From positions 1 to 24,000 of the forward strand of contig JAKBES010000005.1 in the NCBI GenBank assembly GCA_021833665.1: a DNA stretch of 24,000 nt. Reading direction: 5' to 3'. Within the stretch, counting starts at the first letter, position 1. Every line of letters starts with the position of its first letter. Of this stretch, positions 3,018 to 14,368 are shown piece after piece. This DNA is from Acidobacteriota bacterium. GTDB taxonomy: Bacteria > Acidobacteriota > UBA4820 > DSQY01. Both the position numbers and the translations under genes were made by a program. The notes below the pieces were generated by a model. It did no database searches. It saw only the letters and a list, made by a program, of their open reading frames with translations, and was not told where the DNA came from.

Positions 3018-4787
3018 TCAACCATCCGCGCGGACGATCCTGTTTTTCCCCTGATCCTTGGCTTGGTAAAGCGCCTCATCCAACCGCCGAAGGATATTTG
3101 GGAGATCCTGCTCGCCCTTGAGGTCGTCGGAGTGGAGGACACTGACGGAGCAACCCAGATGGAGGCCGAAGGCCTCCTCCTTGGGGAGGCCCGAGGCCGC
3201 CACCATGGCCCGGACCCGCTCGGCCTTTTCCATGGCGTCGGCCGGCGGGCAATTGAGCAGAAGCATGATGAACTCGTCGCCCCCATACCGGGCAGGGACG
3301 TCCTCGCGGCGCGTGGCCTTTCGGAGCAGTTCCCCGATGCGGTGAAGCACCTTATCGCCGCCGCTGTGGCCCAAGTGGTCGTTCACGGCCTTGAAGTCGT
3401 CCAGGTCCAACATGAGGAGGGCGAAAGGAGCCCGGTGCCTGCTGGAGTAAGCCAATTCCTCGTCTAGCCTGTAGATGAAGTAGGACCTGTTGTACAGGCC
3501 CGTGAGCGGGTCCTGTATGGCCTGCAAGTGCAGGAAGCAGTTCTCCAGTGCCACGACGAGCGTCTGGCCGCACGTTTGAAGGAGCCACTCGCGTTCGTCG
3601 AGAGGAACTCCCTTCTTGTACGAGTAAACGACGATGCCACCGAAGGGCTCTCCCCCGTGCATCAGCGGAAGCCCAAAGACCGAGTCGGGGATCATGAAGG
3701 GTGCCGTCTCCAGAGGCATGAGGAATTCAAAGAGCCGCTCACCAAGCCGCTTGCTGGGCTCCGACAGGGGAAGTTGGTCGTATTGGAACCGCTTCTCTTC
3801 AGAGAGGTACGTGGAGCGGCTTTTGCCACCTTCCACCTGGACCAGGTAAATGGCGTTGGCGTAGCGCTGATAGAACACGACGCCGATGCCATCCGTGGGC
3901 AGCGATTCGGCCAAGGCCCGAGTGTAGGATTCCACCATGGGCATGACGTCGAGGCCCGAGCTGGCCGCCGCAGATACGCGGCTCAAGATGGTCAAATCCT
4001 CCACCCGGCGGTGGAGCTCCGCCTGCGTGCTGGTGAGGGTGCCCAGGAGCCACGAGGCGGAGAGGATGAACCCTCCCAGCATGACGAAGGAGCCGAATCC
4101 CAGCAGGTGGACGACGAGAACCATGAGGAATCCCAGGGAGCAAATGGCGAAGGAGTGGATCACGTCCACGGTGAACGTGTCCTTCATGTAAGCCTTGAGG
4201 TCCTCGCCTTTTAGGAAGTCGCGGGGCATGTAGAAAAGATTGTTCACCAGGAAGTAGGCCAGGAACGCCGCCACGGCGGGCCAAAGCTCGCGCTGCTCCG
4301 CGGTGGGCACCAACTCCCCTCCCGCGAGCTTGTACACGATCCACGCGGACCCGAACCGCAAAAGGCGGTTGCCAACGTTCCCGAAGAGGGTGTCCGTCCA
4401 TGCCGGCCACAGCCCGCTCTTGTCTTTGGCCCGGTAGGCAAAATCCACCAGGCTCGTGAGGGCGGCGAGGGCGGTGCCGGCCGCCGGGGAAACCAGGAAG
4501 AAGGCCGCCGTCGCGAAAGAGATGTCGAAGGAGATATAGTAGCCCCCGGCCATCCTGAATTTCACCCGGACGGCCGCCCATGACGCCGCAAAGAGGCTCA
4601 CGAGGATGACCAGAAAACCTGCCGCGGAGCCCAAACCCAGAACCCGGGCGGGGGCGGATGAGAAGGAGTACGCCCCTGGCGGGCCCCATAGGGCTATGGC
4701 TCCCCACAGCGAGAGGCCGAGGGCCAGTTGGATGTAACCGTAAGCGTTAAGGAGGCGTTCCTTCGCCCGCTCCATGCCCACGAGCAT
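3018..4787 (-). CDS. membrane-bound diguanylate cyclase (multi-TM sensor, GAF, GGDEF)
   Basis: The N-terminal ~260 aa form multiple hydrophobic helices, followed by a central GAF-like region. The C-terminal GGDEF domain has LTGLYNRSYF and RYGGDEF, with an RRED I-site 5 residues upstream. Confidence 0.9.
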   Translation of the reverse strand: MLVGMERAKERLLNAYGYIQLALGLSLWGAIALWGPPGAYSFSSAPARVLGLGSAAGFLVILVSLFAASWAAVRVKFRMAGGYYISFDISFATAAFFLVSPAAGTALAALTSLVDFAYRAKDKSGLWPAWTDTLFGNVGNRLLRFGSAWIVYKLAGGELVPTAEQRELWPAVAAFLAYFLVNNLFYMPRDFLKGEDLKAYMKDTFTVDVIHSFAICSLGFLMVLVVHLLGFGSFVMLGGFILSASWLLGTLTSTQAELHRRVEDLTILSRVSAAASSGLDVMPMVESYTRALAESLPTDGIGVVFYQRYANAIYLVQVEGGKSRSTYLSEEKRFQYDQLPLSEPSKRLGERLFEFLMPLETAPFMIPDSVFGLPLMHGGEPFGGIVVYSYKKGVPLDEREWLLQTCGQTLVVALENCFLHLQAIQDPLTGLYNRSYFIYRLDEELAYSSRHRAPFALLMLDLDDFKAVNDHLGHSGGDKVLHRIGELLRKATRREDVPARYGGDEFIMLLLNCPPADAMEKAERVRAMVAASGLPKEEAFGLHLGCSVSVLHSDDLKGEQDLPNILRRLDEALYQAKDQGKNRIVRADG

Positions 4788-4831
4788 ACACCCGGCGAGG
4801 CCAGATAGCTAGTGAAATGCTTGCCGCATGG

Positions 4832-6040
4832 CTATTCGAGACGCCTCACGAAGACCGCCGTGCGATCGTCCACGTAGGAGCCCGGGGCGGCCCAGGCGGC
4901 GGCTTCCTCCAAGAGGCCGAGTACCACATCGCGGGCTGGGCTCCGCTCGGCCCGCGCGCGCACGTAGTCGAGGATCCTCCGCTCGCCGAACTCTTCGCCC
5001 CCCGCGTTCATGGCCTCGCTGATGCCGTCCGTGTACATGATCACGAAGTCCCCCGGTTCCAGCTTGAAAAAACCTCTGAAATACGTGGATGTGGAGGATG
5101 GCCCCAGGACCATTCCCCCTTCGCTCATGGGGTAGAACCGGTCTTTCTTGCGCCGGTAGTAGAAGGGCGGCAGGTGGCCCGCGTTGCAGTAGATCATGTT
5201 GCCTCCCGCATCAAGCTCCGCGTAGAAGAGGGATACGAACCTGGACGTGAGCCTTGACCGGTGGATGACCTTGTTGAGGCGCTCGAAGACCTTCACCATC
5301 TTCTGGTCCTCGGAGATCCCCATCCGCAGCCCCGTGATGACGTCACGAGCCTGGAGAGCCGCGGGCAGCCCGTGCCCCGTGGCATCTCCGATGGCCATCC
5401 CCAGGATGTGCGGATTAATCTGGACGAAATCGTAAACGTCTCCCCCCACGATTTCGGCGGGCTGAGAGCGCCCTGAGATTTCGTAACCTGGAAAAACTAC
5501 ATCCCCTTCGGGCAGAAGCGAGAGCTGGATTTCCTGGCTCTGGAGGATGATGCTCTCCAGCTTCTCCTTGGCGAGCTTGAGGTTGATGGAATGTCGTATG
5601 CTGGAAAGGGCGAAAAGGACGTCGTCCCCGTTGTCCTCCCGTTCCGGCTCGATGCTGAAGGCCACCACGTAGCCGTTCTCTGCGCCCACGGTGATGGCCG
5701 TGAAGCGCTCCACGCCGAGCTGTTCCTCGATGGCGGGATCCACACCCTTGGTATCCAAGCCGGCATAGATGATCCCCGAGCGCATGAGAGCAGCGATGGG
5801 CGGATAGCTCATGGGAATGCTGAACCCGATGGGCGCCTGCGTCCCCGCCCCAAACCTGGCCTCCAGCCGGTAGAACCCCTCGTCTCGCACGTAGAGGCGG
5901 GCCCCCGTGAAGCCGAATTCCTCGGCGAAGTCCGACAGGATGCTCTCGATGATGAGCCCAAGGGTTTGGGTGAGGCTCTGCTGGTTTTCGATGTCGTTGA
6001 GGTGTCTCTCGACTTTTCGGAACAATTGCCGGTAGTCCAT
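4832..6040 (-). CDS. GAF-domain PP2C/SpoIIE-family serine phosphatase (RsbU-like)
   Basis: N-terminal GAF-like region, then SpoIIE motifs GGDVYDF, IGDATGHGLPAAL, YCNAGHLPP, MYTDGISEA and DDRTAVFVR. Confidence 0.9.
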   Translation of the reverse strand: MDYRQLFRKVERHLNDIENQQSLTQTLGLIIESILSDFAEEFGFTGARLYVRDEGFYRLEARFGAGTQAPIGFSIPMSYPPIAALMRSGIIYAGLDTKGVDPAIEEQLGVERFTAITVGAENGYVVAFSIEPEREDNGDDVLFALSSIRHSINLKLAKEKLESIILQSQEIQLSLLPEGDVVFPGYEISGRSQPAEIVGGDVYDFVQINPHILGMAIGDATGHGLPAALQARDVITGLRMGISEDQKMVKVFERLNKVIHRSRLTSRFVSLFYAELDAGGNMIYCNAGHLPPFYYRRKKDRFYPMSEGGMVLGPSSTSTYFRGFFKLEPGDFVIMYTDGISEAMNAGGEEFGERRILDYVRARAERSPARDVVLGLLEEAAAWAAPGSYVDDRTAVFVRRLE

Positions 6041-6119: not shown

Positions 6120-6196
6120 TGGTCGGGACGACTGGATTTGAACCAGCGACCCCTTGCACCCCAAGCAAGTGCGCTACCAGGCTGCGCCACGTCCCG
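6120..6196 (-). tRNA. tRNA-Pro (anticodon GGG)
   Basis: The reverse complement folds as a 77-nt cloverleaf. Acceptor CGGGACG/CGTCCCG, D-arm GCGC-AGCCTGGTA-GCGC, anticodon arm CTTGC-TTGGGGT-GCAAG (GGG, G37), T-arm GCTGG-TTCAAAT-CCAGT, discriminator A and an encoded CCA. Confidence 0.95.
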
Positions 6197-6251: not shown

Positions 6252-6665
6252 TCAGCTGTCAAAAGGCCGCGGACGATTCAAGATGTCGTGCAGGCGAAGC
6301 AGGCCTTCGCGGAGCTGCCCCAGCAACTCTCCCGAACCCTGCGCCCCCCCCTGATCAAGTTGCACCCCATCCTTCCAGGAGCTCAGCGACTCTCTGGCGC
6401 CTTTGATGGTGAACCGCTTGCTGTACAGGAGGTCCTTGATGTGGAGAATGACCTGGATGTCCCTCTTTTTGTACAGACGGTGGCCCGACCGCGTCTTGTT
6501 GGGGGCGAGTTGGGGAAACTGCTTCTCCCAGAACCGGAGCACGTGGGAAGGCACGCCCGTGATGTCGCCCACTTCGCCGATCTTGTAGTACAACTTCTGG
6601 GGAAACGCGTCCGCCGTGAACGGCGTCTCCCCTGGAGGTGCGTTTTTCTTAGCCGTGCTTCTCAT
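6252..6665 (-). CDS. MerR-family transcriptional regulator (short type, no obvious effector domain)
   Basis: YKIGEVGDITGVPSHVLRFWEKQFPQL...SGHRLYKKRDIQVILHIKDLL is the MerR HTH/wing signature. A MerR gene between ihfA and tRNA-Pro is a common synteny. Confidence 0.85.
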   Translation of the reverse strand: MRSTAKKNAPPGETPFTADAFPQKLYYKIGEVGDITGVPSHVLRFWEKQFPQLAPNKTRSGHRLYKKRDIQVILHIKDLLYSKRFTIKGARESLSSWKDGVQLDQGGAQGSGELLGQLREGLLRLHDILNRPRPFDS

Positions 6666-6939
6666 GGTCTTCCGTTGCCATCCATTGACGTGACGGAACG
6701 AAAACGACCGTCTTCCGCTCCGGTATTGAGACGGGTTTTCCCTTGCTCAGGTCTCTGCCCGTCCGCGCTTTCCGCTTGACGACCCGAAACGTCCCGAAGC
6801 CGGAGAGAACCAGGCGGCCTTCTTGGCAAATGCCTTCCGTCATAGCATCGAGCACTTGCTCGACGACTTGTTGAGCGGAGGCATACGTCATCCCCCCGTG
6901 AGCGAGATACACCCTTCTGGCCAAATCCGCACGTGTCAT
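6649..6939 (-). CDS. ihfA: HU/IHF-family DNA-binding protein, IHF alpha-like by synteny but with a divergent beta-arm
   Basis: 96 aa: MTRADLARRV...LSGFGTFRVVKRKARTGRDLSKGKPVSIPERKTVVF. The ATG at 6939 is preferred; the ORF-track start at 6969 is a TTG lying inside the predicted promoter. Overlaps the MerR start by 17 nt. Confidence 0.7.
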   Translation of the reverse strand: MTRADLARRVYLAHGGMTYASAQQVVEQVLDAMTEGICQEGRLVLSGFGTFRVVKRKARTGRDLSKGKPVSIPERKTVVFVPSRQWMATEDHEKHG

Positions 6940-6960
6940 GTGGGCATCCGATCCTTGGTG

Positions 6961-6989
6961 AGTATACAATCTTAACTATTCTTTTGCAA
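6961..6989 (-). promoter_or_regulatory. sigma70-like promoter for the ihfA-like/MerR/tRNA-Pro unit
   Basis: The minus strand reads TTGCAA (6989-6984), 17-nt spacer, TATACT (6966-6961), in an AT-rich spacer. Confidence 0.55.
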
Positions 6990-7943: not shown

Positions 7944-7972
7944 TTGACAACAACCAGGCGCGGGTGTAGAGT
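7944..7972 (+). promoter_or_regulatory. sigma70-like promoter upstream of the lipoprotein/Ldt cassette
   Basis: TTGACA (7944-7949), 17-nt spacer, TAGAGT (7967-7972). Confidence 0.5.
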
Positions 7973-8136: not shown

Positions 8137-8736
8137 ATGAGGAAACTTTACGCTGGTCTGTTGGTTCTTGCCCTGATCGCCCTGGTCGCTTGCGCCAAGC
8201 CGCCGCAGCAGCAGATTGATGCCGCCAAGGCCGCCCTGGCCGCCGCAAAGGCTGCCCAGGCTGACGTTTATGCTCCCGATTCCCTCAAGGCCGCGCAGGA
8301 CAAGGACGCTGCCCTGGACGCCGAGCTGGCCACCCAGCAGAGCAAGTTCTTCAAGAGCTACAAGGTCGCTACCCAGATGACGACCGATCTCCAGCAGCTC
8401 GCGGACAAGGCCAAGGCCGACGCGGTTGCCGGCAAGGAAAAGGCCAAGGCTGACGCCGAAGCCGCCATCACCGCCGCCGACACGGCCGTGAACACCGCTC
8501 GCGAGGACCTCAAGAAGGCCCCCAAGGGTAAGGGCTCCACCGCCGACATCGCCGCCATGACGGGCGATGTGGACACTGCTGCCAAGGCCGTGGAAGATGC
8601 CAAGGCTGACGCCACCGCCGAGAAGTACTTCGACGCCAAGACCAAGGCCGAGAGCGCCAAGGCCCAGGCCGAGAAGGTGTCCGCCGACATCGCCGCCGCC
8701 ATCGAAATGAAGAAGGGTGGCAAGAAGGCGAAGTAA
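8137..8736 (+). CDS. Ala/Lys-rich helical lipoprotein (DUF4398-like), C-terminal Lys
   Basis: AAGGAG lies 8 nt upstream of the ATG. The signal peptide ends in the lipobox LVA|C (Cys19). The mature ~180 aa are dominated by A/K/D/E/T/Q, with YAPDSLKAAQ-type helical repeats, and end ...EMKKGGKKAK. The ORF-track start at 7978 would bury the signal peptide. Confidence 0.85.
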   Translation: MRKLYAGLLVLALIALVACAKPPQQQIDAAKAALAAAKAAQADVYAPDSLKAAQDKDAALDAELATQQSKFFKSYKVATQMTTDLQQLADKAKADAVAGKEKAKADAEAAITAADTAVNTAREDLKKAPKGKGSTADIAAMTGDVDTAAKAVEDAKADATAEKYFDAKTKAESAKAQAEKVSADIAAAIEMKKGGKKAK

Positions 8737-8767
8737 GCCTTCCGCGGATGTACGAATCACCGAAAGA

Positions 8768-8793
8768 GGGGCGGCTTTGCCGCCCCTTTTTTT
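8768..8793 (+). terminator. strong intrinsic terminator after the lipoprotein gene
   Basis: GGGGCGGC-TTT-GCCGCCCC followed by TTTTTTT (8787-8793). Confidence 0.85.
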
Positions 8794-8800
8794 CTCGTGG

Positions 8801-9976
8801 ATGAGACAAGCCAGCATGCGCAAACTCTTCAAGATCATCCTCAAGGTTCTTGTCACCGGCCTGATGGTCGCCCTATGCTGGGCCGGCCTTTTGGCCCTGT
8901 CCTTGTACCTCGATGGGAGCCAAATCCCGCCTGTGGACCCTACGGGCCTGGGAGCGGAGCGAATCTTGGCGTCGGTCCACAGGGCGGGCGGCAAGATTCT
9001 CGCCCCCAAAAGGTTCGGAGCCTGTGAGGACAGCCTGAGGCGGGCCAGAATCGAGATGAACCTTCAGCTTGCAGGGCTGTGGGGAACGAGGAATTTCAGC
9101 CGCCCTACCCGGCTGATGGACGAGGCCCAGCGGGACACGGTCCGGCTATGGCGGGACGTCAGCGCGCACCGCACCGCCACCAAGGCCTCCGCGGAAAGGG
9201 CCATCTCCGCCGCATCGACCGATCTGAGCCAAGCCGAAGCCGTGACGGCCGTGAGCGCCCAGGAGCCTTACGTCCACGCCAGACTCGCGGCGGCGTCCAT
9301 CAACCTCCAGCGGTCTCGTGCCTACCACAAGGATGGACGCTACGACCAGGCGCTCTCCTGCGCCCTGGATTCGATCCGCGACAGCGGCCTCGCCCATCGC
9401 CGCTCCAGCATCGCCCTTGCCCGATACGACGATCCCGGGCACCTGCGAGCCTGGCATAGCTGGATCCGGCAAGCCATAGAGATCTCCCGGCAGACCGGGG
9501 GCGTCAGCTTCGTGGTGATCAAGGAGCGGCATCGCCTGGAGGTTTACCGGGCCGGGAAGCTCGTCAAGTCGGTCCCCGTAGATTTGGGCGCCAATTCCAT
9601 CAACCAGAAGCTCCACGCCGGCGATCGCACCACGCCGGAAGGGCTCTACCACATCACCAAGAAGAAAAGCTACGGGCAGAGCAAGTTCGGCATGGCACTC
9701 CTGTTGGACTACCCCAACGCGGAGGACCGGCGCAGGTTTCAAGCCGCCAAGGCCCGAGGGGAGCTGACCCGGCGCACGGCCATCGGCGGCCTCATCGAAA
9801 TCCACGGCGAAGGAGGGAAGGGCTACGATTGGACCGACGGGTGCATCGCCCCTGATAACCGCGCCATGGAGACCTTGTTCAAGGAAGCGTCTGTCGGTAC
9901 CATGGTGGCTATCGTGGGCAGCGACGGCGGGGATGGCCCCGTCCGTTCCGCCCTCAGGCGAGCGGGGAGAAGCTGA
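8801..9976 (+). CDS. membrane-anchored L,D-transpeptidase-fold protein, YafK-like catalytic domain
   Basis: N-terminal TM helix (ILKVLVTGLMVALCWAGLLALSLYL) and a helical region with DUF4398-like segments. The C-terminal domain has VVIKERHRLEVYRAGKLV...TPEGLYHI...LLDYPNAEDR...IEIHGEGG...TDGCIAPDN. The start is 8801 or 8816 and no clear SD is present. Confidence 0.8.
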   Translation: MRQASMRKLFKIILKVLVTGLMVALCWAGLLALSLYLDGSQIPPVDPTGLGAERILASVHRAGGKILAPKRFGACEDSLRRARIEMNLQLAGLWGTRNFSRPTRLMDEAQRDTVRLWRDVSAHRTATKASAERAISAASTDLSQAEAVTAVSAQEPYVHARLAAASINLQRSRAYHKDGRYDQALSCALDSIRDSGLAHRRSSIALARYDDPGHLRAWHSWIRQAIEISRQTGGVSFVVIKERHRLEVYRAGKLVKSVPVDLGANSINQKLHAGDRTTPEGLYHITKKKSYGQSKFGMALLLDYPNAEDRRRFQAAKARGELTRRTAIGGLIEIHGEGGKGYDWTDGCIAPDNRAMETLFKEASVGTMVAIVGSDGGDGPVRSALRRAGRS

Positions 9977-10722
9977 TGGACTTCCTGGATTCCGCCCCGA
10001 GTTCCTCCGGAGGACCTTCACTCGGCGTTGACAGGCCCGAGAAACGCAGAGCGTGGATCTTCCGCGCCGCGGGGCTCACGCTCCTCCTGGGCACGATGGG
10101 ATTGATGGCTCTGGCCGGCCTCTTTTACCTCTCCACGGGCTACGGCCTTCGCAAGCTGACCCCGGCTTACGTGAGCGATCACCTTATCCAAGGCCCCCTC
10201 CTGCTCACGGACGACAAGGGAGACCCGTTGCCGCCCCCAGACCCGAAGGCCCTGGCCAAGCTAGCTCCCAAAGGGGGCGTCTACATCGTCATCGACCGGG
10301 TCCACAACCGCCTCCACCTCTTCGAAGACGGGAAAAACATCCTGACCGCCGTCATTTCCGCTGGAGCCGGCTCGATCCTGGATGACCCGTCGGGCAAGCG
10401 GAAATGGGTCTTCGACACGCCCACGGGCCGTTTCTTCGTCAAATCCAAGAGGGAAAACCCCACATGGACGGCCCCCGATTGGGATTACATCGAATCGGGT
10501 GAACCCATGCCACGAAACTACGCGGACCGTGTCCAGGAAGGGATGCTCGGCGAGTACGCCCTTGATCTCGGCGGCGGCCCCTCGGGCTATATGATCCACG
10601 GGACCCTCTACACCCGTCTCCTGGGACGGAACGTGAGCCATGGCTGCATCCGCGTGGGGCGGGACGACCTGAGGATTATTTGGAAGAAGGCGCCGGTGGG
10701 CACACCGGTGTTCATGTACTGA
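9976..10722 (+). CDS. L,D-transpeptidase (YkuD domain), N-terminal membrane anchor
   Basis: TM helix LLLGTMGLMALAGLFYL. The YkuD domain has VYIVIDRVHNRLHLFEDGK...PTGRFFV...GYMIHGT...SHGCIRVGRDDL. The start overlaps the upstream stop (TGATG). Confidence 0.9.
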   Translation: MDFLDSAPSSSGGPSLGVDRPEKRRAWIFRAAGLTLLLGTMGLMALAGLFYLSTGYGLRKLTPAYVSDHLIQGPLLLTDDKGDPLPPPDPKALAKLAPKGGVYIVIDRVHNRLHLFEDGKNILTAVISAGAGSILDDPSGKRKWVFDTPTGRFFVKSKRENPTWTAPDWDYIESGEPMPRNYADRVQEGMLGEYALDLGGGPSGYMIHGTLYTRLLGRNVSHGCIRVGRDDLRIIWKKAPVGTPVFMY

Positions 10723-10723
10723 C

Positions 10724-11413
10724 ATGAAAAAGCTGATGATGATCGTGTTGCTGGCGGCCCTCTCGCTCCTGGCCCTGGCGGGCAAACCCAAAGCCAAGCC
10801 GCAGCCGGCTCCAGTGCCGCCACCCCCCCCGGCGCCGGGCGAACGGCTGGCCGATGAGCGGGGGCGCCTTGCCCTTTCAAACCAGTTCTACCTGGAGCTG
10901 GCCGTGGGGGCCCGGGAAATCCGCATCTGCCATTCCGGCGTCGCCGTAGCCACGTACAAGCTCGATTCCTTGGCCCTCGCCTACCCCCGGGTCTTCTGGG
11001 TGGCCCGCCAGCATTCCGGGCCGTGGATTGACGACGTATGGTTCAACGCCCACCTCGATCCGCCCAAGGTCGTTCAGCGGGTCAGAATCATCCCCGGCGA
11101 CGCCTCCACCATTCCCACACCCGACAAAGCCGACGTCATCCCTCCCACGCTCGAAGAACTCACCCCCGTGCCTCCCGTCTTCGTGATCCGATGCGACGGG
11201 GGCCGCGCCATTCACCTCCACCTCGAGGGAATCGTCCCCGGAGCGGTCATGAAAGTCACGGACCCTCACAGCCGCTGGCACGACTTTCTGGCGGCCCTGA
11301 CCTTCCGCCAGAGGGACGCGTTGCGGCTCACCGCGACCATCCCTTCGGCCGAAGGCGCCGCCCTCTTCAGGTCCTTCCCGGACGGAAATCTCGATCTGCT
11401 GGTCCTGCCCTGA
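10724..11413 (+). CDS. secreted hypothetical protein with a Pro-rich linker; possible degenerate YkuD-like fold
   Basis: Signal peptide MKKLMMIVLLAALSLLALA followed by KPKAKPQPAPVPPPPPAP. The start is 1 nt after the upstream stop. GC3-rich codon usage matches the neighbouring genes. Confidence 0.7.
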   Translation: MKKLMMIVLLAALSLLALAGKPKAKPQPAPVPPPPPAPGERLADERGRLALSNQFYLELAVGAREIRICHSGVAVATYKLDSLALAYPRVFWVARQHSGPWIDDVWFNAHLDPPKVVQRVRIIPGDASTIPTPDKADVIPPTLEELTPVPPVFVIRCDGGRAIHLHLEGIVPGAVMKVTDPHSRWHDFLAALTFRQRDALRLTATIPSAEGAALFRSFPDGNLDLLVLP

Positions 11414-11506: not shown

Positions 11507-12520
11507 TCAATACCCCGGCGTGGACCCGTCCACCTTGCCCATGAAGACCGAGTAGATGTAGACCGTGTACCCCAGCACCAGAGGAACGCCGATGAGCGCC
11601 AGGATGAGCATGGTCTGGAGGGTCAGGGGCGACGAAGATGCATTGAAGGCCGTGAGGCTGTAGTCCAGGTTCGTGCTGGAGGGTGCCAGCATGGGATAGG
11701 CGGAGAGGGCCAAGGTCGAGGTGAGTCCGGCAATAGCAAGGGAGGACGACGCAAAGGCCCATCCGAACCTGCGCCCTTTCAGAAATACCGGGAGCGCCAC
11801 CATCGCCGCCACGAAGAGCGTGATGGTCACCCAGTGCCAGCCGACTGAATAGTAACGGTGGTACAGGTGCGGGGACACCCCCAGCGTCCAAAAGGCCGCC
11901 ACCAGGTACAGCACCGCGAAGGCCGCCCACAGCCGCATGGCCCAGCCTGAGACCCGCGCTCGCAGACCTCCGGCCGTGCGCAGCGCGAGGTACGTGGCCC
12001 CCTGGAGGGTGAACATGGCCAAGCTCACGATCCCCATGAACACCGAGTAGGGATTGAGCAGCCCCAGGAAGGATCCCGTGAAGGTGCCCGTCTCGTCGAT
12101 GGGAATGCCCCTCATGAGGTTGCCCACGGCCACTCCGAATAGGATGGAGGCGAGGAAGCTCCCCAGGAAGAAGAATTTGTCCCAGAGCGCCTTGAGGGAG
12201 GGCGACTCCACCTTGCTTCTGAACTCCACGCCCACGGCCCGCATGATGAGGGCCACCAGCACCAGCATCATGGCCAGGTAGAACCCCGAAAAGACCGTGG
12301 CGTACACGGGAGGAAAGGCCGCGAACAGGGCGCCCCCGCCCGTGAGCAGCCACACTTCGTTCCCGTCCCAAACCGGGCCGATAGACTTGATGAAAAGGCG
12401 CCGCTCCTCCTCGCCCCTGGCAAAAAGGTGCAAGTTGCCCACCCCCAGGTCGAAGCCGTCGAGGATGGCGTAAATGGTCATGAGAACGGCGATCAGCAGG
12501 AACCAGATGGTGTTGAGCAT
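11507..12520 (-). CDS. cydB: cytochrome bd-type quinol oxidase subunit II
   Basis: MLNTIWFLLIAVLMTIYAILDGFDLGVG is the characteristic CydB N-terminus. Polytopic membrane protein lying 3 nt after cydA. Confidence 0.93.
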   Translation of the reverse strand: MLNTIWFLLIAVLMTIYAILDGFDLGVGNLHLFARGEEERRLFIKSIGPVWDGNEVWLLTGGGALFAAFPPVYATVFSGFYLAMMLVLVALIMRAVGVEFRSKVESPSLKALWDKFFFLGSFLASILFGVAVGNLMRGIPIDETGTFTGSFLGLLNPYSVFMGIVSLAMFTLQGATYLALRTAGGLRARVSGWAMRLWAAFAVLYLVAAFWTLGVSPHLYHRYYSVGWHWVTITLFVAAMVALPVFLKGRRFGWAFASSSLAIAGLTSTLALSAYPMLAPSSTNLDYSLTAFNASSSPLTLQTMLILALIGVPLVLGYTVYIYSVFMGKVDGSTPGY

Positions 12521-12523
12521 GGG

Positions 12524-13849
12524 CTACCCCCTCTTCCTGCTTGCTTCGGCCTCCGGGCCCGCCAGGACGTGCTTCCGGACGGCGTAGAAGCCCAGGGCGA
12601 AGAGCCCGGCGAAGATGAGCGTGAACAGGATGATGGAGAACAGAATCTGCCCCGCGGGAACCGTGGGCGAATAGGCGTCCGCCGTACGCAGAAGGTGATA
12701 GACGGCCCAGGGCTGGCGGCCGATCTCGGCGGTGAACCACCCGATCTCGTTGAGGGCGAAGGGCACCGGAATGAGCCAGAACAGGGCCTTGAGAAAGCGC
12801 CTGCTGTCGTAGAGTCTGCCTCGCTTCAACAACAAGGCTCCGTACAACATCACGAACATACACATGAACCCGGGCCATACCATGGCGTGGAAGGACATGG
12901 CCGTGAAGGTCACGGGAGGAAGATCCTGGGGCGGGAAGGCGTCAAGTCCCTTGACCTGGGCGTTAGGGTCGAAGTAGACCATGAGGCTTAAAAGCTTCGG
13001 GATTCCAAGATCGGGGAGTGGGTAGCCCAGCAAAAGGAGGGGGGCGCCGCTCTGGGTCTTGAAAAGGGCTTCCATGGCGGCGAACTTCTCGGGTTGGGTG
13101 TGGGCCACCTGCCGGGTGTGCCAGTCCCCCGCCATCGCCGAACCCAGGGTCGCGATGACCCCGGCCACGATGCCGATGGCCAGCGATCTCCTTGCAAAAT
13201 CCACGTGCCGGCCCTTCAGCAGGTACCATGCGCTGATCCCCGCCACCACGAACGCCGCCGTCACCAGGGCGCCCGAAACGGCGTGAAAGAACCTGGGAAG
13301 CGTGGAGGGATTGAAGACCGCCGCCGCGAAGCTCGTGAGTTCGGCCCGGACCACCTTGCCTGCCCCGTCCGTGACGAGCTTGTATCCCGCCGGTGTCTGT
13401 TGCCAGGAATTGGCCACGATGATCCAGAAGGCCGAGAGCACGGACCCGAGGGCCACCATGAGAGCCGAGAAGAAGTGCACCCGTTTGGAGACGCGGTTCC
13501 AACCGAAGACCAGGACAGCCAGGAAACTGCTTTCCAGGAAAAAGGAGAAAATCGCTTCGGCCGCCAGCGGCGCGCCGAAAATGTCTCCCACGTATTTCGA
13601 ATACGTGGACCAGTTCGTGCCGAACTCGAACTCCATGATGATGCCCGTGGCCACGCCGATGGCAAAATTGATGGCGAACAGCTTGGTCCAAAACCGCATC
13701 ATCTGGTCGTAGATGGGTTCCGCGCGTCTCAGGCGCAGCCAAGCCAGGACCACGAGGATCCAGGCCAGCCCGATGGTGAGCGGCGGGAACAGGTAGTGAA
13801 ATCCCGCCGTCAGTCCGAACTGAACGCGCGACAACGTCATCGCATCCAT
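12524..13849 (-). CDS. cydA: cytochrome bd-type quinol oxidase subunit I
   Basis: LSRVQFGLTAGFHYLFPPLTIGL...GDWHTRQVAHTQPEKFAAMEALF...EIGRQPW are typical CydA motifs. The ATG at 13849 lies 5 nt after GGGAGG; the ORF-track start at 13855 is a GTG inside the SD. At 441 aa it is the short Q-loop size class. Confidence 0.93.
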   Translation of the reverse strand: MDAMTLSRVQFGLTAGFHYLFPPLTIGLAWILVVLAWLRLRRAEPIYDQMMRFWTKLFAINFAIGVATGIIMEFEFGTNWSTYSKYVGDIFGAPLAAEAIFSFFLESSFLAVLVFGWNRVSKRVHFFSALMVALGSVLSAFWIIVANSWQQTPAGYKLVTDGAGKVVRAELTSFAAAVFNPSTLPRFFHAVSGALVTAAFVVAGISAWYLLKGRHVDFARRSLAIGIVAGVIATLGSAMAGDWHTRQVAHTQPEKFAAMEALFKTQSGAPLLLLGYPLPDLGIPKLLSLMVYFDPNAQVKGLDAFPPQDLPPVTFTAMSFHAMVWPGFMCMFVMLYGALLLKRGRLYDSRRFLKALFWLIPVPFALNEIGWFTAEIGRQPWAVYHLLRTADAYSPTVPAGQILFSIILFTLIFAGLFALGFYAVRKHVLAGPEAEASRKRG

Positions 13850-13939
13850 GCACACCTCCCCTCAGAATCTTGACCCATGACCACTCTCATCTTAATGGCT
13901 CCCTCCGCTGGGGCGCAAGGGTGAGCGCCTCACTGCCGG

Positions 13940-14368
13940 CTATGGGACGGATTGCGGATCGCGAATCTCCCTGGCCAAGTCACCGAAGGTGACTCCCGTA
14001 AGGAAAGCGGCCAGGTGCTGCGTGGCTCCAACCCAGGCCTGCTGAACCGGACACGTTACCGCGAGGGGGCAGACCGCCGGCGAAGCCACGCAGACGTTGA
14101 GGGACAGGGGTCCCTCGAAGGCCTCCACCACCTCCCGGAGAGTGATCTGCGCGGCGGGGCGGGCCAAAGCTATGCCTCCCCCGCTGCCCCGCACCGTGGC
14201 CAGGACACCCACTGCCGATAAGCGGCTCACGATGCGCCTGATGAACGCCGATGGAATCAGCCTTCTGGAGGCGATGTCCGCCGCCGTCACGCGGGCACCC
14301 GGCTCAAGGCAGGCCAGGTGAAGCACGATGCGCGAGGCGTAATCGGTGTTGCGGCCTATGGTGAACAC
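13940..14368 (-). CDS. Rrf2-family transcriptional regulator with a three-cysteine cluster motif
   Basis: The N-terminus TDYASRIVLHLA...ITAADIASRRLIPSAFIRRIVSRLSAVGVLATVRGSGGGIALA is an Rrf2 winged HTH. C-x6-C-x5-C (NVCVASPAVCPLAVTCP) sits at the position of the Fe-S ligands of IscR/NsrR. GTG start after GGGAGGGG. Confidence 0.9.
   Translation of the reverse strand: MFTIGRNTDYASRIVLHLACLEPGARVTAADIASRRLIPSAFIRRIVSRLSAVGVLATVRGSGGGIALARPAAQITLREVVEAFEGPLSLNVCVASPAVCPLAVTCPVQQAWVGATQHLAAFLTGVTFGDLAREIRDPQSVP

Follow-up and report, generated by a model that had tools for sequence, protein, structure and literature searches.

How might a diderm bacterium without Braun's lipoprotein (Lpp) fasten a membrane to its peptidoglycan? 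The question is raised by four genes at positions 8137-11413 of a 24,000-nucleotide stretch of Acidobacteriota DNA (contig JAKBES010000005.1; hereafter the window), which are named A, B, C and D in their order on the + strand. A sequence-only reading of the window had proposed that A encodes a tether of the Lpp type, held by its C-terminal lysine, and that the following genes encode the enzymes that attach and detach it. Our analysis supports the existence of a four-gene module and shifts the candidate attachment site from the C-terminus of A to an internal lysine, K132. In the reading that we favor, and to which we assign a probability of roughly 40%, the product of C would attach A to peptidoglycan through K132 and the product of B would release it. 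The features on which the argument turns are the following.

8137-8736, + strand: gene A, lipoprotein precursor of 199 amino acids (open reading frame and translation)
8518-8547, + strand: conserved loop A128-P-K-G-K132-G-S-T-A-D137 of A, between the long helix and helix 134-160 (alignment)
8530-8532, + strand: K132 of A, candidate acceptor lysine (conservation)
8704-8733, + strand: basic C-terminal tail of A, EMKKGGKKAK (translation)
8816-9976, + strand: gene B (alternative start 8801), with N-terminal membrane helix, A-like domain and YkuD domain
~8912-9424, + strand: helical domain of B, paralogous to A (hhalign)
~9512-9913, + strand: YkuD domain of B, of the hydrolase (DpaA/Csd6) type; catalytic Cys codon at 9842-9844
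9976-10722, + strand: gene C, predicted membrane-anchored canonical L,D-transpeptidase; YkuD domain at ~10279-10713, Cys224 codon at 10645-10647
10724-11413, + strand: gene D, secreted protein of 229 amino acids (open reading frame)

Alignment of A homologues led to 50 species-level loci, distributed among Acidobacteriota, Nitrospirota, Desulfobacterota and Zixibacteria, with the acidobacteriotal loci falling into Thermoanaerobaculia, Vicinamibacterales, Holophagales, Terriglobia and Aminicenantes. Synteny was judged where at least 2.5 kb of downstream DNA was available. Such loci have the order A-B-C on one strand, with two exceptions: a variant in which A is followed directly by C, without B or D (L043:4036-5613), and a locus in which B appears disrupted (L050). 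A profile of D, trained on acidobacterial sequences, placed D after C in about 38 of the 50 loci, with E-values of 1e-8 to 1e-17 for matches in phyla outside the training set; in L031 and L040, A-B-C is present and D is not detectable. The four-gene set was also found in Gemmatimonadota (L051) and Eisenbacteria (L053) by a search begun from B. Finally, an A-profile scan of 1.8 billion cluster representatives returned 293 clusters (50% identity) at E ≤ 1e-30, each of about 195-205 amino acids. Synteny in related genomes, a check that the sequence-only reading had proposed, is therefore borne out. The closest public contig (L001) is an Acidobacteria metagenome-assembled genome; relatives are labelled Thermoanaerobaculia. 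All 53 related loci (L001-L053) come from contigs that are metagenome-assembled or metagenome-derived, and L036 bears the label Desulfonema limicola. The genes thiD and cydB adjoin the module in close relatives only, which identifies the four genes as the conserved unit, and the recurrence of the gene order across phyla places the arrangement far from chance. The flanking genes (thiD, cydAB, an Rrf2 regulator, tRNA-Pro, a MerR/HU pair, a SpoIIE-type phosphatase, a GGDEF protein, rpsA and glyS) are unrelated. The comparison supports the view that A, B, C and D make up one cell-envelope module, conserved and self-contained.

Two loci carry additional A genes. In the Nitrospirales locus L039 (6875-12516) the order is A-B-A'-B'-C-D, the A-B pair being duplicated and C and D single; the second, diverged A paralogue has neither the G-K-G loop nor the basic tail. 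In L034 an extra A-like lipoprotein gene (6289-6951) lies directly 5′ of A; its product has MKGKQ in place of PKGKG and a Lys-rich tail, KIKKGKKKK.

Translation of gene A reproduced the lipoprotein previously read at these coordinates, with Cys19, Ala at +2 and Lys as the last residue. The N-terminus reads MRKLYAGLLVLALIALVA-CAKPPQQ, the lipobox being LVA-C (Cys19 codon at 8191-8193), and Ala, Lys, Asp and Glu abound in the mature part. Within the family the Cys is 99% conserved and the lipobox is found in 136 of 146 representatives. The C-terminal lysine fared differently when its conservation was examined. Of 166 close and mid-range sequences, 73% end in Lys, 18% in Arg and 9% in another residue, and position -2 is as Lys-rich as the last (78%). 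Among 146 diverse representatives (median identity 36%) these proportions become 18% Lys, 35% Arg and 47% other, and 46 of the 146 proteins have no Lys at all in the last eight residues. Lys-free tails occur at loci that still have B and C (e.g., L031, L037, L040 and L051). Judging from these alignments, the terminal Lys is a compositional feature of a generically basic tail and not a conserved attachment residue; attachment through it was rejected as a family feature on three samples of rising diversity. Orthologues of this kind, lacking the C-terminal Lys, are what the sequence-only reading had itself named as refuting its proposal.

Apart from the lipobox, the best-conserved stretch of A is the loop A128-P-x-G-K132-G-[ST]-x-A-D, around which the window protein reads APKGK-GSTADIAAMTGDVDTAAK. 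In the 166 close and mid-range sequences K132, A128, P129, A136 and D137 are each 100% conserved. In the diverse alignment (147 sequences, i.e., the 146 representatives and the window protein), position 132 is Lys in 97%, with A128 at 96%, P129 at 97% and G131 at 92%. The nearby K130 is Lys in 28% and Arg in 30% of the same sequences, and the other basic columns exchange Lys and Arg freely. K132 is kept in 46 of 46 proteins with Lys-free tails, although Arg outnumbers Lys overall in those proteins. K132 thus appears to be the sole Lys-specific conserved position of A, and a demand for Lys, not for mere positive charge, is as expected of an amine nucleophile. The A-P-x-G-K-G loop is missing from the A-like stalk of B, where hhalign leaves a gap of seven residues. 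Two other readings of the motif were discarded: that G-K-G-[ST] represents a Walker A motif (the Lys has no directly adjoining Ser or Thr, and A is a secreted helical lipoprotein), and that the APKGG ahead of the YkuD domain of C echoes the loop (93% of C orthologs have a gap in place of the second Gly).

The AlphaFold2 model of A (predicted local distance difference test score, pLDDT, 90.5) is all-helical, with helices at residues 24-39, 42-45, 47-68, 76-126, 134-160 and 164-197. The lengths of the helices and the tight connections between them suggest a rod made of two stacked antiparallel three-helix bundles with a common 51-residue helix, about 7.5 nm long, which is close to the length of Lpp. 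The lipid anchor would be at one end of the rod, and the 127-133 loop and the C-terminus at the other. Fitting this picture, Foldseek superposed a designed three-helix bundle of 100 residues on A at 2.5 Å over 98 alignment columns. No A-family member examined has Asp at +2 and, on this ground, A is probably anchored in the outer membrane; the rule is that of E. coli and may not hold in these phyla.

Searches with A gave few leads to relatives outside its own family. The window protein has no NCBIfam match and only four chance-level Pfam matches (E 0.09-0.45). Its description as DUF4398-like stands as a distant resemblance: a helical motif, ...YAP..L..A...L..A..., is common to DUF4398 (PF14346) and the A family, and 19 of 35 A relatives match weakly (best E = 8.4e-5, below the gathering score of 27.9 bits). 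The stalk of B also matches weakly (E = 0.17, below the gathering score). The window protein itself has no such match, and the DUF4398 model is only about half as long as A; with sub-threshold matches only, A was not assigned to DUF4398. Literature mentioning DUF4398 was uninformative and gave no known function. At the structural level, the top Foldseek match of the A model was the N-terminal helical domain of BB0323 from Borrelia burgdorferi (6rjx, 9q9v; probability 0.85-0.92), with a template-modelling score (TM-score) of 0.43-0.56 and a non-significant E of about 1. BB0323 is a periplasmic lipoprotein required for outer-membrane integrity and, by its PDB molecule name, has a LysM domain; its likeness to A is at the level of the fold only. 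A combined profile of A and the B stalk did not recover BB0323 and matched designed helical bundles only, a result ascribed to composition, and BB0323 was dropped as a homologue. Homology to Lpp was likewise rejected, as neither the Pfam search (no PF04728 match at E ≤ 1) nor the A-profile search of the PDB gave any sign of it; the earlier statement that A is unrelated in sequence to Lpp holds.

B matches the Pfam YkuD family (PF03734) with E = 1.2e-15 (58.8 bits, gathering cut-off 23.4). When a profile of the B family was searched against the PDB, the matches ranked by E-value as E. coli DpaA (8ikr, 9.7e-9), Bdellovibrio Bd1075 (7o21, 3.2e-7), H. pylori Csd6 (4xzz, 3.8e-6) and C. jejuni Pgp2 (6xj6, 6e-5), all four being DpaA-like (C82.A01) YkuD hydrolases and all ahead of the first transpeptidase (4lzh, 1.7e-4), which aligned with the C-terminal 44 residues only. 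The sole NCBIfam match was LdtF_DpaA_YafK (NF040599), at 21.5 bits versus an equivalog cut-off of 365. K265, H330 and C343 are invariant in the family, and A345, at Cys+2 in the motif GC[IV]A, is at least 90% conserved. Absence of Arg at Cys+2, with Ala or Asn in its place, is common to DpaA-like enzymes and L,D-carboxypeptidases (PMC8263019), as is a lysine in loop L1, Lys83 in DpaA and Lys107 in Csd6 (PMC10653827); K265 of B aligns with Lys83. The Ala at Cys+2, the aligned Lys and the profile ranking place B on the hydrolase branch, consistent with the previous assignment of this enzyme to the YafK branch from its motifs. L,D-carboxypeptidases have an aromatic D-Ala pocket formed by a Trp at His-2 and a Tyr in loop L2 (PMC10653827). 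In B, the His-2 residue is an invariant Glu (IEIHG), which in sequence alignment falls on the Trp of GIWVHG in Csd6; in DpaA it is Met. The spacing from His to Cys is 13 residues in B and, by our own count, 8 in DpaA and 16 in Csd6. Thus, B reads as a YkuD protein of the hydrolase branch that is neither a typical Csd6-type carboxypeptidase nor a DpaA equivalog, an assignment to a branch and not to a substrate.

Unlike the known DpaA-like hydrolases, B is predicted to be membrane-anchored and to carry a helical stalk of 170 residues. Comparison with hhalign matched residues 17-191 of A with residues 38-208 of B (probability 99.2%, E = 2.4e-19), and the alignment begins in register, the lipidated Cys of A falling at the end of the membrane helix of B. 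By this alignment, A has a full-length paralogue in the N-terminal, periplasmic half of B, which lacks the loop and the basic tail. As to the limits of the gene, the end at 9976 stands, and the start is more likely at 8816 than at 8801, where it had been placed, since the database protein identical over 99% of the query has 386 amino acids.

C shows a stronger match to Pfam YkuD (E = 6.6e-23, 82.3 bits, same cut-off). Its best PDB match is the ErfK/YbiS-like transpeptidase 4lzh (E = 2.6e-11, including the PTWT loop), and its NCBIfam matches are all to L,D-transpeptidase models (PRK10260, LdtE and PRK10190), far below their cut-offs. H208, H222, G223, C224 and R226 are at least 98% conserved among 43 sequences. 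The motif SHGCIR provides the Arg at Cys+2 (R226) that is a canonical feature of LdtA-E (PMC8263019). C can thus be classified as a canonical L,D-transpeptidase (Ldt) with an N-terminal membrane helix, in line with the classical HG...SHGCIRV motif originally noted in it.

The fourth protein, D, had been described simply as accessory. Its presence in most loci confirms it as a member of the module, and the additional data recast it as a probable catalytically dead YkuD fold. D has no sequence match in Pfam, NCBIfam or the PDB. With its AlphaFold2 model (pLDDT 80), 45 of the top 46 Foldseek matches in the PDB were L,D-transpeptidase structures, the exception, at rank 4, being an amidase/peptidoglycan-binding fusion (4xxt); the best matches had probabilities of 0.97-0.98 and E = 7e-3, but a TM-score of only about 0.3. 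Compared by hhalign, D and the YkuD domain of C align colinearly (E = 1e-3, probability 19%). The residue of D that matches the catalytic Cys is variable, and in no D ortholog do the aligned catalytic positions show a conserved Cys or His. The invariant residues of the family lie elsewhere: H70, S71 and G72 (ICHSG), R201, R216-S217-F218 and the C-terminal Pro. Collectively, these results give moderate support to the view that D is probably a degenerate YkuD fold devoid of the catalytic Cys and His. That D might be an active Ldt in other phyla was rejected, distant orthologs also being without HG...GC motifs. Several D orthologues (e.g., P0264, P0265, L032 and L038) have a lipobox instead of a plain signal peptide.

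The expression signals of the module include the following two elements.

7944-7972, + strand: sigma-70-like promoter candidate 5′ of A (TTGACA, 17 nucleotides, TAGAGT), a weak consensus match (10 of 12)
~8762-8795, + strand: intrinsic terminator in the A-B gap, formed by a G+C-rich hairpin of 14 bp and a T-run after it (fold energy)

The scan for promoter consensus matches gave two sites in the region versus 0.6 expected. A good Shine-Dalgarno sequence precedes gene A. The terminator reads GGGGCGGC-TTT-GCCGCCCC, then the T-run; the 8737-8800 segment has a fold energy of -29.8 kcal/mol (z = -3.9), and none of 200 shuffled sequences folded as well. A consensus terminator scan did not pick up this hairpin. 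The closest relatives, and some of the other loci, have a similar hairpin 3′ of A. It is missing from many loci of Aminicenantes and Nitrospirota, in which A and B are separated by 1-35 nucleotides, and the terminator was rejected as a universal feature. Downstream, the start of C overlaps the stop of B (TGATG at 9974-9978), and C and D meet at TGAcATG (10720-10726). The layout read from the letters alone, with a strong terminator followed by three translationally coupled genes, could be reproduced, the junctions to the nucleotide, as could the motifs TPEGLY, LLDYPN, IEIHGEGG and TDGCIAPDN in B and MIHGT...SHGCIRV in C. The codon adaptation index (CAI), computed against the single reference gene rpsA, is 0.68 for A, 0.48-0.53 for B, C and D and 0.32-0.50 for other genes of the region. 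The top value in the locus points to an abundant protein and, along with the separate terminator, suggests that A is highly expressed.

The closest analogy to such a set is the E. coli system formed by Lpp, the attaching enzymes LdtA/B/C and the releasing enzyme DpaA (YafK, LdtF). In both cases there is a small, helical and apparently abundant lipoprotein with a lipobox Cys and a basic C-terminus, along with a canonical YkuD transpeptidase (here C) and a YkuD hydrolase of the DpaA branch (here B). The differences are considerable. Mature A has 180 residues and is predicted to be a monomeric double three-helix bundle, whereas Lpp is a 58-residue trimeric coiled coil; the candidate acceptor in A is a lysine of an internal loop, its terminal Lys not being conserved; all components are in one operon; the hydrolase bears a paralogue of the lipoprotein; and there is an extra, apparently dead YkuD-like protein. 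There are two precedents for attachment by way of a lysine that is not the last residue. The outer-membrane lipoprotein LimB of Coxiella burnetii is linked to meso-diaminopimelate via internal Lys21, and Legionella Lpg1810 is attached via its penultimate Lys (PMC12729407). A resembles LimB as a lipoprotein with a proposed non-terminal-Lys attachment in an organism without Lpp. It differs in that LimB is Coxiella-specific and its attaching Ldt is not genetically linked, whereas A adjoins the enzyme genes; furthermore, the Lys of LimB is near the lipid anchor, so that the tether is short, about 3.5 nm, whereas K132 would be at the far tip of a long rod. A literature search found no prior description of the A family or of the operon.

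The sequence data show the gene structure, the family assignments, the synteny across phyla, the paralogy of A and B, the Lys-specific conservation of K132, the loss of the terminal Lys and the codon bias of A; we infer the rod geometry, the membrane in which A sits, its covalent attachment and the residue that serves for it, and what B, C and D do. C would form an acyl-enzyme with the meso-diaminopimelate of a peptidoglycan tetrapeptide; the epsilon-amine of K132, at the far end of the A rod, would then take over the acyl group, producing a covalent link between membrane and wall. B, as a DpaA-like cysteine hydrolase, would reverse the link; its stalk, starting at the inner membrane, might either raise the catalytic domain as far as the wall or pack against A. 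D, without catalytic residues, might bind the stem peptide or A.

How does this reading compare with its rivals? The original proposal, that A is an analogue of Braun's lipoprotein attached via the C-terminal Lys, can still draw on the window protein and the 73% of close relatives that end in Lys, on a tail that would lie at the same distal tip as the conserved loop (to judge from the helix topology) and on OutB and Dickeya Lpp, which use a C-terminal Lys-Lys (PMC12729407). These points are hard to reconcile with the figure of 18% among diverse representatives, with the 46 proteins lacking Lys in the last eight residues, with a last position no richer in Lys than the one before it and with the retention of the enzyme genes where tails have no Lys; we consider this proposal very improbable. 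Somewhat better placed, yet still unlikely, is the idea that A stays in the inner membrane, being linked to the wall from that side, like OutB of Dickeya, or forming a mixed assembly with the B stalk. B and C are both predicted to be anchored in the inner membrane by N-terminal hydrophobic helices, the rod of B begins right where its membrane helix ends, at the point that aligns with the lipidated Cys of A, and Ldt enzymes can act on inner-membrane proteins, as OutB shows. The lack of Asp at +2 in the members examined speaks against it, with the proviso that the sorting rule is valid for E. coli-like Lol systems only and may fail in these phyla.

A more serious challenge is that A and D may not be substrates at all but non-covalent scaffolds or regulators, with C making 3-3 cross-links and B trimming or cleaving stem peptides as an L,D-carboxypeptidase or endopeptidase. 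A would then be a ruler or an activator like LpoA/LpoB, D a dead-enzyme adaptor, and any contact of the K132 loop and the basic tail with peptidoglycan or the enzymes would be non-covalent. This explanation draws its weight from the close kinship of DpaA-like enzymes with carboxypeptidases: B is nearly as close to the carboxypeptidases Bd1075, Csd6 and Pgp2 as to DpaA, and some DpaA-like proteins may be carboxypeptidases (PMC8263019). The paralogy between A and the B stalk suggests a protein-protein relationship, L039 has A-B duplicated as a pair next to single C and D genes, and a generically basic tail would suit electrostatic binding. On the other hand, the place of the Trp in the D-Ala pocket of carboxypeptidases is taken by an invariant Glu in B, electrostatics alone does not explain Lys at 132 while other basic positions tolerate Arg, and a regulator need not be the most codon-optimised gene of its locus. 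On balance we regard the scaffold explanation as somewhat less likely than attachment through K132 and as its main rival.

Attachment through K132 has its own weak points. The terminal Lys that prompted the tether idea is not conserved in the family; position 132 is Arg in 4 of the 147 sequences; and a lysine kept invariant within a Gly-rich turn might have its role in binding or in folding. Sequence comparison does not separate DpaA-like enzymes from L,D-carboxypeptidases, a likeness that would allow B and C to act on stem peptides only, and the A-like domain of B may do no more than act as a spacer. The rod geometry is derived from the secondary structure of the model, and the CAI has a one-gene basis. 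Lastly, the terminator between A and B is lineage-specific, and so is, consequently, the uncoupling of A expression from that of the enzymes.

Elsewhere in the window, on the - strand, genes for a MerR-family regulator and an HU/IHF-like protein (6252-6969) overlap by 17 nucleotides (6649-6665). The HU-like gene has an unusually low G+C content at third codon positions (0.62 versus about 0.8) and the lowest CAI of the region (0.32). Also on the - strand, a GGDEF diguanylate cyclase (589 amino acids) and a SpoIIE/PP2C-type phosphatase (402 amino acids) are encoded in tandem at 3018-6040; this pair lies upstream of a tRNA-Pro(GGG) gene (6120-6196). On the other side of the module, cydA and cydB (cytochrome bd oxidase) are found beside an Rrf2-family regulator gene (11507-14368, - strand), a block that adjoins the module in the closest relatives only.

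How the outer membrane is fastened to the wall is only partly understood in most diderms. Lpp is confined to four gammaproteobacterial orders, and DpaA-like proteins are found in phyla that lack it, including Acidobacteria, with their substrates left open (PMC8263019). The module described here is common in environmental phyla, as the 293 clusters indicate, and it supplies a specific candidate for such a substrate, narrowed to one residue, as well as enzymes that might attach and detach it. We tentatively propose a widespread covalent membrane-peptidoglycan tether, not homologous to Lpp, with an internal lysine at the tip loop and a dedicated set of three proteins, spanning six or more diderm phyla (Acidobacteriota, including Aminicenantes, Nitrospirota, Desulfobacterota, Zixibacteria, Gemmatimonadota and Eisenbacteria). 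C would be the writer of the link, B an eraser that recognises its substrate via a built-in paralogue, and D a dead-enzyme reader. Attachment of proteins by Ldt enzymes and their release by DpaA are already known; new here would be the family of tethers, an acceptor in an internal tip loop, the grouping of the genes in one operon, a hydrolase stalk that resembles the substrate, and a dead YkuD partner. Even if the association were non-covalent, an enzyme stalk paralogous to the partner lipoprotein and a conserved non-catalytic YkuD-like protein would be novelties among YkuD systems. If the tether does exist, it would be the missing substrate for the DpaA-like enzymes of bacteria that have no Lpp.

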